Below, piece by piece: positions 39,291 to 43,390 of a stretch of DNA of 64,000 nt. The stretch is taken from assembly GCA_046483985.1 (NCBI GenBank), contig JAWOCD010000080.1, forward strand, positions 1 to 64,000, written 5' to 3'. The translations under genes and the position numbers were made by a program. Under the pieces are notes generated by a model. That model saw only the letters and a program-made list of their open reading frames with translations. It had not been told where the DNA came from and did no database searches. The first letter of the stretch is position 1; the number at the start of each line of letters is the position of its first letter. This DNA comes from Promethearchaeia archaeon (GTDB lineage Archaea; Asgardarchaeota; Lokiarchaeia; Sigyniarchaeales; SOKP01).

Positions 39291-39794
39291 TCAATAAAAA
39301 GTTTGTTTCACTCTTTTTTGTGGTTTTTCTTTTCGTTTAAAAATTATCTCATTTAATCTATACACTCTACCGCAATAGGCACATTGAATTTTCAAGGGTT
39401 TTTTTTCTAACACCTTAAATTCCGTATCGATAGGCTCTTTGGGAGAATTTGTTATACAATTTCTATTGACACAGATAATTAACTTTTTAATTACTTTGGG
39501 GATTTTAACTTGTTTCTTCTCGATAACCTTATAATTATTTATTAGAGAGATTGTAGCATTAGGGGCTAATATGGAGATTTGCTGCATTTGCACCTCATTT
39601 AAAAAAACTCCCTCTATTTTTACAATATCCTTAGTGCCATACTTATTAGAAGAAACATTAACTCCAATGGTCATTAAGTTTTCAGTTTCATCTAAGCCTG
39701 TCAAATTTAAAATTGTTAAGGCGTAACCAGCGTCAATATGGTCTATCACAGTGCCTTTGTAAATTCTGTCAATTCTTAATTTTTTTTCACTCAA
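39291..39794 (-). CDS. pyrI: Aspartate carbamoyltransferase regulatory chain
   Basis: GTVIDHI.AG, KD.VKIE, AP.AT...I; Zn site C.N.NC...C.YC. Confidence 0.97.
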   Translation of the reverse strand: MSEKKLRIDRIYKGTVIDHIDAGYALTILNLTGLDETENLMTIGVNVSSNKYGTKDIVKIEGVFLNEVQMQQISILAPNATISLINNYKVIEKKQVKIPKVIKKLIICVNRNCITNSPKEPIDTEFKVLEKKPLKIQCAYCGRVYRLNEIIFKRKEKPQKRVKQTFY

Positions 39795-39874
39795 TTTTTA
39801 ACATCCTTCTCCTTTTTAGAAATATTTATTATTATTATCATAAAAAATTATTCATTAATTAATTAATATCCAAT

Positions 39875-40966
39875 TCAAGCAATGAATATTGCGATAAAGA
39901 AAAGAACGGTGGTTACTAACACATTATAGCTCAAATTATCATCAATATCCAGATTCAAATAATCCAGAGATCCTATAAGAAGTGAACCAATTAAGGGGAT
40001 TAAAAAGAAACCTAAAATGCTAATGATAAAGTAACCCCTCAGAAGAATAAGGATAAGAATGCCCGAAATATATGCAGTAATAATACCAGCAAATAATCCC
40101 TCATAGGTCTTGCGGGTATCTCTTATATGATGAGCTCCAAAAACCCTCCCAATTAAATTTGACGAGATATCACTTAATATTGCCATAGTCATCGTGGTGC
40201 AGATTACTAATGGCCCAATTGGTTGAAATAAACCAAATAAAATAATTATTGAAAAGCAACCAATTGCCATGGATATCTGAGGACCAAATCGCATATGTGA
40301 TTCCTTTTCCTTCTCTCTTAGAATTCTATTAACGGGTTTAAGAGGATATAATTCAGGCTTTAAAATTCTCACAATATCTGCAGTCATTAAACCGATTAAT
40401 GAAATTCCCACGAGAAAAACAACAAGATATTGGGTAAAAATCATCAATCCTTCCTTTTCCAATTCGAAAATAGGGTTAAGTATTTCTAGTATCCAAGGAT
40501 AAGAAGTAGTTAAAATATTCACTAAGAAATTTTTAACTAGAAAACCAAGAGTAAAATAAAATAAAATAATTGTAAGTACAACTAAATGAGCTAATTTTCG
40601 ATAGATATCATATTTAAGTGGTAGTTCATTAGAATCTCCCTTATTCTTATCATTTTTATCATAATTGGTTTTTTTTCTTTTTTCCCTTATCATAAGTAGA
40701 TAAAATACTGGAAGAAAAAAGGCAATAAATACTATCATCATTAAATCGAAGGGGAATATAATAAAATTTATCGATGAAATTTTCAACTGATTTACAATGA
40801 TAAAACTGACGGTTATAGCACTCAATAATACTAAGGCATTCGCAAGATTGTTTATAAATGCTCCAGACTCCTTCTTCCTTGCTAAATAAGTTATATAGCA
40901 GAGAAAAAAACAATAAAGATAAAGAAAACAAACGATAATAAATGATAAAAGCTTCAATATGTCCAA
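39875..40966 (-). CDS. CTP-dependent polyprenol/diacylglycerol kinase-like membrane protein
   Basis: RKL.H, LRE.E, D..S..IG..FG, KT.EG and IDDNL motifs. Confidence 0.85.
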   Translation of the reverse strand: MDILKLLSFIIVCFLYLYCFFLCYITYLARKKESGAFINNLANALVLLSAITVSFIIVNQLKISSINFIIFPFDLMMIVFIAFFLPVFYLLMIREKRKKTNYDKNDKNKGDSNELPLKYDIYRKLAHLVVLTIILFYFTLGFLVKNFLVNILTTSYPWILEILNPIFELEKEGLMIFTQYLVVFLVGISLIGLMTADIVRILKPELYPLKPVNRILREKEKESHMRFGPQISMAIGCFSIIILFGLFQPIGPLVICTTMTMAILSDISSNLIGRVFGAHHIRDTRKTYEGLFAGIITAYISGILILILLRGYFIISILGFFLIPLIGSLLIGSLDYLNLDIDDNLSYNVLVTTVLFFIAIFIA

Positions 40967-41097: not shown

Positions 41098-42501
41098 CTA
41101 AAATTGAGACTCATCAATATCCGGCATATCAGCATCGTTTAAAGCTTGCTTGATCGCCTCTTCAGAAAGCTCAAAATCCTCGAGATCTCCAGTCATATAT
41201 TCTTTATACGCTTGTAAATCAAAATGTCCGTGTCCGCTGAAATTAAAGACGATAACCTTTTTTTCATTGTTCTCTTTTGCCTTTTCGGCTTGAACCATAG
41301 CTTCCTTTATAGCGTGGCAAGTTTCGGGGGCAGGAAGAATACCTTCTGCTCCAGCGAACGTTAATCCTGCTTCAATAATCTCCGTTTGGAAGTGTGTTGT
41401 GGCAGTAATTACATCATTATTATAAAGGTTAGATATAATAGGAGCAATTCCATGATATCTTAATCCTCCTGCATGGATTGGTGTCGGAATAAAATTATGC
41501 CCTAAGGTATGCATCTTCAAGATTGGAGCTTGTTTTGCAGAGTCCCCATAGTCCCATCTATACTCTCCTTTACAGACACTAGGACATGCTTTAGGTTCCA
41601 CACCGATAATTTCCACGTCGGGGAGATCTCCACGAATTTTATCTCTTGCAAAAGGAATCATGAATCCGCTAAAATTTGAACCTCCTCCCATACACCCTAT
41701 TAAGATATCCGGTTTCTCTATACCTGCTTTTTTCAGTTGTTTCTTTGTTTCTTGTCCAATCACTGTTTGATGTAAACAGACAAAATTAATCACGCTCCCT
41801 AAAGAATAACGTGCATTATCGCCCCTCAAACTATGTTCTACTGCTTCAGAGATCGCAATCCCTAAACTTCCCGGGTGATCGGGATCCTTTTCATAGTAAC
41901 TCCTTCCAGATTCTGTAAACCGTGAAGGACTTGCATGAACTTCTCCGTTATAGGATCTCATTAAAATTTTTCTACCTGGCTTTTGTAAAAAGCTGGCTCG
42001 GACCATATAAACTGTACATTTAATATTAAATAAATTACAGCCAAATGAAAGAGCCGATCCCCATTGACCTGCACCAGTTTCAGTGACTAACTCGGTCATA
42101 CCATCTTTTTTGGCATAATATGCTTGCGCTAAAGCTGTATTCGGTTTATGAGAGCCAGTTGGGGATAACGATTCATTTTTAAAATAAATCTGAATATCAT
42201 CTCCCACGACATCTAAAACATTCTCTAATGCTAACGCTCGATGTAAGGGTGAAGGACGGTAAGTTCTCGCGTAAATTTCCCTTAGTTTCTTTGGAATATC
42301 TATAAGCGGCTCTTGAGATACTTCTTGCATTACACAACTCTTTGGGAATATCTGAAAAGCCATTTCAGGTGGTGCAGGTTTCTCATCTTGTGGGTTAACT
42401 AAGGGCGTCATAGGTGTAGGTAAATCTGGTAAAATATTTACCCATTGCTTTGGAACCTCGCTTGGTTCAAGCAAGATTCTTCCATTAAAATTGTCAACCA
42501 T
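41098..42501 (-). CDS. trpB2: TrpB2 (stand-alone tryptophan synthase beta-like, indole salvage)
   Basis: GSHKPNTA PLP lysine, TETGAGQWG, GGGSNF, IHAGGLRYHG and FNFSGHG. Confidence 0.96.
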   Translation of the reverse strand: MVDNFNGRILLEPSEVPKQWVNILPDLPTPMTPLVNPQDEKPAPPEMAFQIFPKSCVMQEVSQEPLIDIPKKLREIYARTYRPSPLHRALALENVLDVVGDDIQIYFKNESLSPTGSHKPNTALAQAYYAKKDGMTELVTETGAGQWGSALSFGCNLFNIKCTVYMVRASFLQKPGRKILMRSYNGEVHASPSRFTESGRSYYEKDPDHPGSLGIAISEAVEHSLRGDNARYSLGSVINFVCLHQTVIGQETKKQLKKAGIEKPDILIGCMGGGSNFSGFMIPFARDKIRGDLPDVEIIGVEPKACPSVCKGEYRWDYGDSAKQAPILKMHTLGHNFIPTPIHAGGLRYHGIAPIISNLYNNDVITATTHFQTEIIEAGLTFAGAEGILPAPETCHAIKEAMVQAEKAKENNEKKVIVFNFSGHGHFDLQAYKEYMTGDLEDFELSEEAIKQALNDADMPDIDESQF

Positions 42502-42550
42502 TTTTAAGTAACCATTTTTTAAGTTTTGTTAAGTTTTTTAGTACACGATT

Positions 42551-42582
42551 CGTTATATTATTGGAATTCAATAATATTAACG
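42551..42582. promoter_or_regulatory. Near-perfect inverted repeat in the trpB2 leader (hairpin or operator)
   Basis: CGTTATATTATTG-GAATT-CAATAATATTAACG, with one extra T in the right arm. Confidence 0.55.
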
Positions 42583-42588
42583 CACATT

Positions 42589-42625
42589 AAAAACCATCTT
42601 TTTATCATAGAGATTATAAAAAGAT
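42589..42625 (-). terminator. Hairpin plus U-tract in the trpB2 leader
   Basis: Perfect 10-bp inverted repeat ATCTTTTTAT (42596-42605) / ATAAAAAGAT (42616-42625), followed on the minus strand by GGTTTTT. Confidence 0.5.
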
Positions 42626-42659
42626 AAAAGAAGTAAATCAATCAGGTTTAGTCCAATGC

Positions 42660-42683
42660 AAAAAGGCGTCTATTACCAACGCC
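42660..42683 (-). terminator. GC hairpin plus U5 overlapping the leader-peptide stop
   Basis: The minus strand reads GGCGU-UGGUAAUAG-ACGCC-UUUUU. Confidence 0.55.
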
Positions 42684-42726
42684 AAGGCCACTGCCAGCGC
42701 CAAAAATCTAATTTTACAGGTGCCAT
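42673..42726 (-). CDS. Trp-rich leader peptide MAPVKLDFWRWQWPWRW (candidate trpL)
   Basis: ATG at 42726, five TGG codons among the last nine, tandem TAA TAG stops. A TATA-like ATATATATAT lies ~25-35 nt upstream. The ORF ends ~170 nt before trpB2 on the same strand. Confidence 0.85.
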   Translation of the reverse strand: MAPVKLDFWRWQWPWRW

Positions 42727-42812
42727 ATGCTTTCTAAACCATTATTTAAAATATATATATTATTATTGTCCAAATTATAAAAAGTTAATGGAATAAAAAA
42801 TCCGAAGTCTGT

Positions 42813-43220
42813 TCATTCTCTCCCTTCAAAAATTTTTTCAATGCGATTTGCAGCTACCCTTGATACCTTTACAGTTTTCATTAGGGTATCAATTGTTGTA
42901 CCCGCACAAACTATAACCAAACGCTGTGCATTTGTGATAACTATATATCCATCTTCCGCGCGCACGATGATTTCAGCCAAATCTTCTTGAAACAAGGTTT
43001 TTATGGTAGATTTCCCACTAAGTACTAAACTAGCTGCTAACCCACAAAATGCATCACTCTCTACATCGTAATTGGGTAATGCACTAAATGCTATTTGGTA
43101 CCCTTCAGACGAGACTAAGGCAATTGCTTCAATTTCAGTATTTGAAGTAATAAAGCTAATTTGCGGGCTTATCTTCTCAATATCATCTTCTGTGATACCT
43201 AAATCGGAACCAAACTCCAT
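42813..43220 (-). CDS. Roadblock/LC7 domain protein
   Basis: IEAIALVSSEGY.IA and L.EIIVRAEDGYIVI pattern. Confidence 0.9.
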   Translation of the reverse strand: MEFGSDLGITEDDIEKISPQISFITSNTEIEAIALVSSEGYQIAFSALPNYDVESDAFCGLAASLVLSGKSTIKTLFQEDLAEIIVRAEDGYIVITNAQRLVIVCAGTTIDTLMKTVKVSRVAANRIEKIFEGRE

Positions 43221-43390
43221 CGAATCAAACCATAAAAAATATTTTTATTTTGTTTATAAAATCTGTTTATAAAATTAATAGAAAACTTTTATTTAAAATT
43301 TTTACTGAAGTTTAAAATTATAATTACTGCATGACTTATTAAAAAATGAAAAAAGAAAAAAATTATCAATTCTTATACAAGGCAAGGGTT

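Follow-up and report, generated by a model that had tools for sequence, protein, structure and literature searches.

Tryptophan-codon-rich leader ORFs upstream of trpB2 and of the trp operon in Asgard archaea: a putative ribosome-read sensor of tryptophan supply

Short open reading frames packed with tryptophan codons precede both trp loci of the Asgard archaeon studied here (Promethearchaeia archaeon, assembly GCA_046483985.1) and the trp loci of about a hundred of its relatives. The one found before trpB2 lies on the minus strand of contig JAWOCD010000080.1, of which positions 1 to 64,000 were analysed (this whole stretch of 64,000 nt is called the window below). Our overall explanation, which we hold to be rather probable, is that it encodes a leader peptide acting in cis, i.e. 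one that reports the supply of charged tRNA-Trp and controls read-through into trpB2. As far as we are aware, leader-peptide attenuation, a textbook mechanism, has been established only in bacteria and in no instance in archaea; a literature search, the coverage of which was incomplete, brought up no report of a leader peptide, of attenuation or of uORF control in archaea, Asgard archaea included. What is described here would be a known control principle in a domain for which we found no report of it, with an architecture that differs from that of bacterial trpL.

The leader ORF starts with an ATG (42726-42724), which is followed by 16 further codons and by a TAA (42675-42673); a TAG comes directly after. 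The deduced peptide is MAPVKLDFWRWQWPWRW, with Trp at codons 9, 11, 13, 15 and 17, i.e. at 5 of the 17 codons for a Trp content of 1.06% in the proteome. The codons inserted between the Trp codons are CGC, CAG, CCT and CGT. The preliminary description, made from the letters of the window alone, had read the same ORF (five Trp codons in strict W-x alternation, then TAA TAG), had called the Trp run locally GC-rich and had placed the end of the ORF about 170 nt before trpB2. All of this was borne out: the run (42702-42676) has a G+C content of 70%, versus 35% genome-wide, the stop codon is separated by 171 nt from the ATG at 42501, and the gene that begins there is trpB2, as judged from its NF009057 match (Table 1). 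A TATA-like element had also been noticed before the ORF. AT-rich, TATA-like stretches are indeed seen upstream of the uORF (42783-42773 and 42760-41), but they are not discriminating in AT-rich DNA and no start site can be assigned from them. No consistent Shine-Dalgarno element was found for the uORF. The same-strand gene located upstream of the leader encodes a Roadblock/LC7 protein.

From base composition, about 8e-4 alternating runs of five TGG are expected genome-wide, both strands included, and one is observed; the five-Trp run before trpB2 is not due to chance. The genome contains three further alternating runs of four TGG. Two of these lie inside long ORFs, in another frame, and were discarded as leaders (they are chance occurrences). 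The third is in an intergenic 23-codon ORF, with a W-x-W-x-W-x-W pattern near its end. This ORF is on contig C69, at a distance of 426 nt from a downstream trpDCFBAEG operon that begins with trpD. Over 4.06 Mb, the only intergenic runs of at least four alternating TGG are those upstream of trpB2 and of trpDCFBAEG. When run on the source genome, the trpB2-leader sequence model finds the trpB2 leader and not the trpDCFBAEG one. The two are too unlike for the model to connect them, which means that a design is shared and not a sequence, and they are not recent copies of each other. The trpDCFBAEG leader type is common to two other genera (L036 and L037).

Table 1. Position of the elements discussed in the text (coordinates in the window unless stated otherwise)
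Feature	Coordinates	Strand	Evidence
AT-rich stretch with TATA-like elements, candidate leader promoter	42741..42783	-	read from sequence
Closing helix P1, 5' arm GGTTTAG, 7 nt upstream of the uORF start codon	42734..42740	-	pairs with 42651-42645 in folds
Leader ORF, 17 codons + TAA, five Trp codons	42673..42726	-	conservation of start, frame, length and stop over 60 distinct leaders
Five TGG codons in W-x alternation, proposed stall site	42676..42702	-	only five-fold run of the genome
Hairpin P2, 5' arm in Trp/Arg codons 15-16, stop codon in loop, 3' arm post-stop	42665..42683	-	terminator scan and compensatory changes
T5 tract directly after P2	42660..42664	-	read from sequence
Conserved motif GCATTGGA and P1 3' arm (CTAAACC)	42645..42659	-	conservation, covarying arms
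Tract rich in U past the closing helix (T4 and T5 runs), possible archaeal termination signal	42613..42644	-	U enrichment in relatives
Hairpin H2, U-rich 5' arm, A-rich 3' arm, then T5 at 42593-42589	42589..42623	-	folds, covarying arms
Long hairpin/palindrome H3, apical stem 42580-42553, conserved basal strands	42541..42588	-	alignment
GGT, Shine-Dalgarno-like, 9 nt before the trpB2 start	42511..42513	-	conserved alignment column
trpB2, TrpB-like PLP enzyme, 467 aa, proposed regulated gene	41098..42501	-	NF009057 E 1.7e-193; TIGR01415 E 2.1e-179
Second Trp-rich uORF, 23 codons, four alternating Trp	contig C69, L031:1415-1486 (outside window)	+	before trpDCFBAEG

TrpB2 orthologues were found in 39 of 41 relatives. 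TrpB2 loci and named 'Promethearchaeota archaeon' MAG records together provided 60 distinct trpB2 leaders, 55 of which come from the family of the source archaeon; for a leader to be selected, a Trp run had to be present at most 14 codons from a stop, and a start codon was not required. An ATG start is found in 56 of the 60, exactly 8 codons precede the first Trp in 45, the peptide is 15-18 residues long in 49, and the stop comes 1 or 2 codons past the last Trp in 52. Across leaders, the distance from the uORF stop to the trpB2 start is mostly 155-175 nt. As to the frame, an ATG within an open stretch of at most 16 codons upstream exists in the Trp frame for 51 of 55 leaders, versus 1 and 4 in the two other frames, and a stop at most 3 codons after the last Trp is seen in frame for 52 of the 55 family leaders, versus 0 and 0. 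A sequence model, R1, gave matches in 93 of 121 family genomes (31 of the 36 high-quality ones included), with one or two copies in each; each match that was cross-checked is located immediately before trpB2 or trpD. At 13 of 17 trpD loci, some of them from three sister families of the order (f2-f4), the gene has a W-rich uORF ahead of it, and so has trpB2 in the genomes sampled from six more families of the phylum (f18, f5, f6, f9, f20 and f24). The presence of Trp-rich uORFs in orthologous leaders, which had been left to be checked, is thus confirmed before trpB2 or trpD across the family, the order and several families of the phylum.

As a control, 28 TrpB2 loci from outside the phylum were inspected, and a comparable uORF was found in two bacterial loci only: a clear Trp-rich uORF ends 78 nt before trpB2 in a Caldithrix record (L118), and a short one ends 105 nt before trpB2 in a Rokubacteria record (L104). 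In both records the uORF probably belongs to a classical attenuator, and the gene that it precedes has seldom been discussed as a regulated one. No Trp-rich uORF precedes trpB2 in the five archaeal loci from outside the phylum. In some relatives whose trp operon has a leader of its own, that of trpB2 is missing or decayed (L006, L009, L013-15 and L017). In two decayed cases, both from genus g5 (L006 and L009), the Trp run is gone and the post-stop arm, the conserved motif and the 3' module are kept; for the trp operons of that genus, a Trp-rich uORF of their own was found in one genome (L036) and none was found in the other (L034).

The Trp codons overlap an RNA helix, P2, that a stalled ribosome would disrupt. 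Its arms display compensatory changes among relatives, with several distinct arm pairs, and the register is shifted from clade to clade, different Trp codons being used as the 5' arm. For that reason per-sequence duplex tests were preferred to an alignment fold (RNAalifold, applied to a MAFFT alignment of 43 leaders, recovered only 3 P2 pairs). Among all the segment pairs, the strongest cognate-specific signal (-2.1 kcal/mol, cognate versus non-cognate) was that of the closing helix P1; its arms covary widely, and its cognate duplexes average -9.0 kcal/mol versus -6.25 kcal/mol for the non-cognate ones. If P1 is real, the leader transcript has to begin upstream of 42740. In many relatives the conserved motif GCATTGGA pairs with the uORF start codon and the bases preceding it, and this anti-start pairing would shut the uORF after the domain has folded. 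Another helix, P0, joins codons 1-4 to the Trp-Gln-Trp-Pro codons in the largest clades, on weaker evidence. A terminator scan of the window flagged P2 and its T5 tract as terminator-like.

Beyond the closing helix, the first 14 nt are 57% U, for a background of 37% (51 leaders), and T5-T7 runs hold their position across leaders. Archaeal polymerases are known to terminate at oligo-U without the help of a hairpin, a point against the scheme proposed below, which supposes that RNA structure matters to an Asgard polymerase at U tracts. Signals of the termination type are present between the leader and trpB2 (P2 with its T5 tract, and the U-rich tail); termination itself is inferred. No role is assigned to the several T tracts further downstream or to H2 with its U tail; the H2 arms (E:F) covary, with -1.8 kcal/mol for cognate versus non-cognate. 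The H3 motif, considered as a possible operator in common with other promoters, occurs once in the genome, and its centre and outer strands are conserved, even in the uORF-less relatives L006 and L009. Since G-U and A-C mismatches are equally frequent in it (19:19), an RNA hairpin cannot be distinguished from a DNA operator, and H3 could be either one, or, more precisely, either an RNA structure or the target of a DNA-binding regulator. A small hairpin, H4, shares a strand with the base of H3 and is followed by an A-rich stretch, the GGT and the trpB2 start. In 48 of 55 leaders, it is the sense strand that folds better.

A simple scheme can be drawn from these elements. When Trp-tRNA is plentiful, the ribosome would finish the short ORF and leave; the domain would then fold behind RNA polymerase at the U tracts, and transcription would end before trpB2. 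When Trp-tRNA is scarce, the ribosome would stall on the Trp run and keep P2 and its neighbours open, so that the polymerase would pass the U tracts and read through into trpB2. The trpDCFBAEG leader, although unrelated in sequence, would follow the same logic. The two halves of the scheme do not have the same weight. That the leader is a ribosome-read Trp sensor acting in cis we regard as likely, because the short ORF is in frame, packed with Trp codons, found only before trp genes and present in two unrelated forms. Sensing is in this way well supported by comparison, and translation, ribosome stalling and transcription termination are inferences. As to the output, we give a little less than an even chance to termination through occlusion of the hairpin in the manner sketched above, for which there are no transcript or ribosome data. 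Ribosome stalling under Trp-tRNA shortage, with control of read-through into trpB2, had been suggested in the preliminary description: the Trp-rich leaders, the hairpin and the U tail support this reading, and the control of read-through stays at the stage of inference, as does stalling itself.

A covarying antiterminator (the 2:3 pairing of classical attenuators) was searched for with the cognate versus non-cognate scan, which returned P1, P2, P0 and H2 and no alternative partner for the post-stop segment or for H2. With no covarying antiterminator found, attenuation would have to proceed by occlusion alone, and not by the four-segment switch of bacteria. One candidate was rejected: the first codons of the uORF can form an 11-bp match with the U tract/H2 region in one relative, but no cognate signal was obtained across leaders (B:E, +0.12), so that the match is attributed to chance pairing between A-rich and U-rich runs. 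With occlusion, a ribosome standing at the stop codon would also block P2, and the outcome therefore depends on kinetics; P2 would be left uncovered if the stall took place at the first or second Trp codon.

The same Trp sensor might have another output, i.e. translation of trpB2, stability or processing of the mRNA, or factor-dependent termination (of the aCPSF1/FttA type). We see this as unlikely without dismissing it, since no classical antiterminator was found, trpB2 has a Shine-Dalgarno-like GGT of its own and a long structured spacer in which H3 and H4 share a strand, and the interval between the uORF stop and the trpB2 start is kept tightly at about 155-175 nt. However, when 49 leaders were folded (at equilibrium) with the ribosome masked at the Trp codons or at the stop codon, the accessibility of the trpB2 start region was 0.36-0.37 in all states, from which it follows that the leader and trpB2-start modules fold independently. 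That result speaks against a simple translational relay, and a long-range one, with partners swapped between the anti-start motif, the strands of H3 and the region of the trpB2 start, was rejected; in L003 and L023 the change of the motif covaries with the P1 arm and not with the H3 loop. A U-rich tail placed directly past the closing helix is better suited to termination. As for factor-dependent termination, on the usual view the uncoupling that follows a stall should reduce expression under starvation, and for a biosynthetic gene this is the wrong sign.

The codons of the leader are constrained well beyond the Trp residues. Those placed between the Trp codons nearly always begin with C, which means that nearly every TGG is followed by a C. 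Arg is encoded by CGN in 77 cases out of 77, whereas the genome uses AGR for 45% of its Arg, and Gln by CAG (51) more often than by CAA (19), for a genome preference of 77:23 in favour of CAA. Such a bias is expected if the same bases are both read as Trp codons and paired in the RNA. Taken by itself, this strong nucleotide constraint would also fit an element made of RNA only, either a riboswitch or a site where UGG repeats are bound by a protein or by tRNA-Trp, the reading frame being incidental; the first codons, conserved as nucleotides and able to pair with the Trp run, and the compact, multi-helical character of the domain would fit it too. We nevertheless deem it very improbable. Conservation of the ATG, frame and stop far exceeds what is seen in the other frames, the N-terminal half of the peptide varies in sequence and is constant in length (hence a constant 8-codon spacing with varying codons), and leaders unrelated in sequence have only the ORF design in common. 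Moreover, no other sensor could be identified. No Rfam family, RF00513 (Trp_leader) included, matched positions 42000-43300 at E values up to 10, and none reached its gathering score in six related loci; there was likewise no Rfam T-box match in the leader region of the window or in these six loci. The TRAP (MtrB) gene, PF02081, was not found in the source genome, which is 97% complete (the B. subtilis control was positive), and the UGG repeats of the leader have a 6-nt period, unlike the 9-11 (G/U)AG repeats needed for TRAP attenuation in Bacillus.

The variability of the peptide bears on another possibility raised in the preliminary description, that of a nascent chain which, in the manner of TnaC, would sense free Trp or indole in the ribosome tunnel and arrest. 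TnaC recognises free Trp by means of defined residues; release at the stop codon is then blocked, and a catabolic operon is induced. The Asgard leader resembles the TnaC leader of the E. coli tna operon in being a short peptide whose translation state governs, as proposed here, read-through into a tryptophan-related gene. The C-terminal Trp segment would be next to the peptidyl-transferase centre when the stop is reached, and the stop is within 1-2 codons of the last Trp in most leaders. Against these points, the peptide is conserved at its Trp residues only: one of the between-Trp positions can be occupied by Pro, Ala, Gln, His, Leu, Arg, Ser or Thr, what conservation there is between the Trp residues is explained at the RNA level, as the codon choice indicates, and the number of Trp codons varies from 2 to 6. 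In addition, stalling at high Trp would, as in the known case, induce the downstream gene, again the wrong sign for biosynthesis. The abundance of Trp codons, the variability of their neighbours and the biosynthetic nature of the targets rather indicate that tRNA charging is sensed, and an arrest of the TnaC type retains only a slim chance. Slimmer still is the chance that the ORF is an independent gene, merely adjoining the trp genes, for a Trp-rich peptide acting in trans as does at least one bacterial trp leader peptide, peTrpL (PMC7298713), with the U tracts past the domain ending a separate short transcript: the ORF is always on the same strand, directly upstream of trpB2 or trpD and at a conserved distance in many genera, its N-terminal half is not conserved as a peptide, and the trpB2 copy decays where the trp operon has its own leader (L006 and L009).

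When the ribosome-read sensor is set beside known systems, it has most features in common with trpL of E. coli and Salmonella (RF00513). In both cases genes for Trp synthesis are closely preceded, on their own strand, by a short ORF with many Trp codons, the Trp codons are part of one strand of a helix, a hairpin and a U run precede the structural gene, and a distal segment can pair with the region of the leader start. The differences are that the Asgard leader has five alternating Trp codons instead of two adjacent ones, that no 2:3 antiterminator was detected in it, that its stop codon is in the loop of the hairpin formed by the Trp codons while a closing helix encloses the whole ORF, and that its host is an archaeon with a eukaryote-like polymerase. 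In archaea, control by tryptophan is exemplified by TrpY of Methanothermobacter, a DNA-binding repressor of the trp operon and of a separate trpB2. The likeness is in the targets, both a trp operon and trpB2; the means differ, a repressor and not a translated leader. The H3 palindrome could be the operator of some TrpY-like factor, for which there are no binding data. Lineage-specific leaders with several Trp codons were also found by comparative genomics before trp genes of Actinobacteria and other bacteria (PMC1262725). They show this design arising repeatedly; they are, however, bacterial, have classical terminator/antiterminator pairs and are unrelated in sequence to the Asgard leader.

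A broader reading, namely that ribosome-mediated transcription attenuation is used by Asgard archaea and spread over their phylum, having evolved independently of the bacterial design and with at least two unrelated types of leader, is put forward tentatively, as we would not yet wager on it. The same reserve applies to its mechanistic side, in which a ribosome translating the Trp leader would settle whether termination by a eukaryote-like polymerase takes place at a U tract, by occlusion of a hairpin spanning the stop codon and without an antiterminator. For leader-peptide attenuation to work, the nascent transcript has to be translated by a ribosome that follows the polymerase closely, and Asgard archaea are the closest prokaryotic relatives of eukaryotes. 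If true, the Trp leader would be the first case of attenuation logic in archaea, it would imply that transcription and translation are functionally coupled in the lineage nearest to eukaryotes, and it would offer a simple, mutable system to study how an archaeal polymerase responds to RNA structure and ribosomes at U tracts.

The leader would also mark trpB2 as a gene regulated by tryptophan. Within family f1, TrpB2 was found in 23 of 24 relatives and TrpD in only 9 of 24. As TrpD was not found in many genomes of the family, trpB2 may be their only Trp-forming enzyme; in these genomes, where it still has a leader, it is perhaps used for indole salvage. Elsewhere on the minus strand of the window (39291-40966), pyrI, the gene for the regulatory chain of aspartate carbamoyltransferase, comes after a 363-aa ORF that is not a recognisable pyrB and matches nothing in Pfam or NCBIfam. 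Leaders for other amino acids were looked for in a genome-wide scan of short intergenic ORFs enriched in a single residue, and only the two Trp cases were convincing; aroA and aroC, which are divergent and separated by a 63-nt spacer, have no leader. Outside the window, a 42-codon intergenic ORF (contig C45:21276-21404, plus strand) carries a repeated Cys-Lys-Cys-Gly-Gly-Gly-Cys pattern and looks, from its deduced product, like a small metal-binding peptide.
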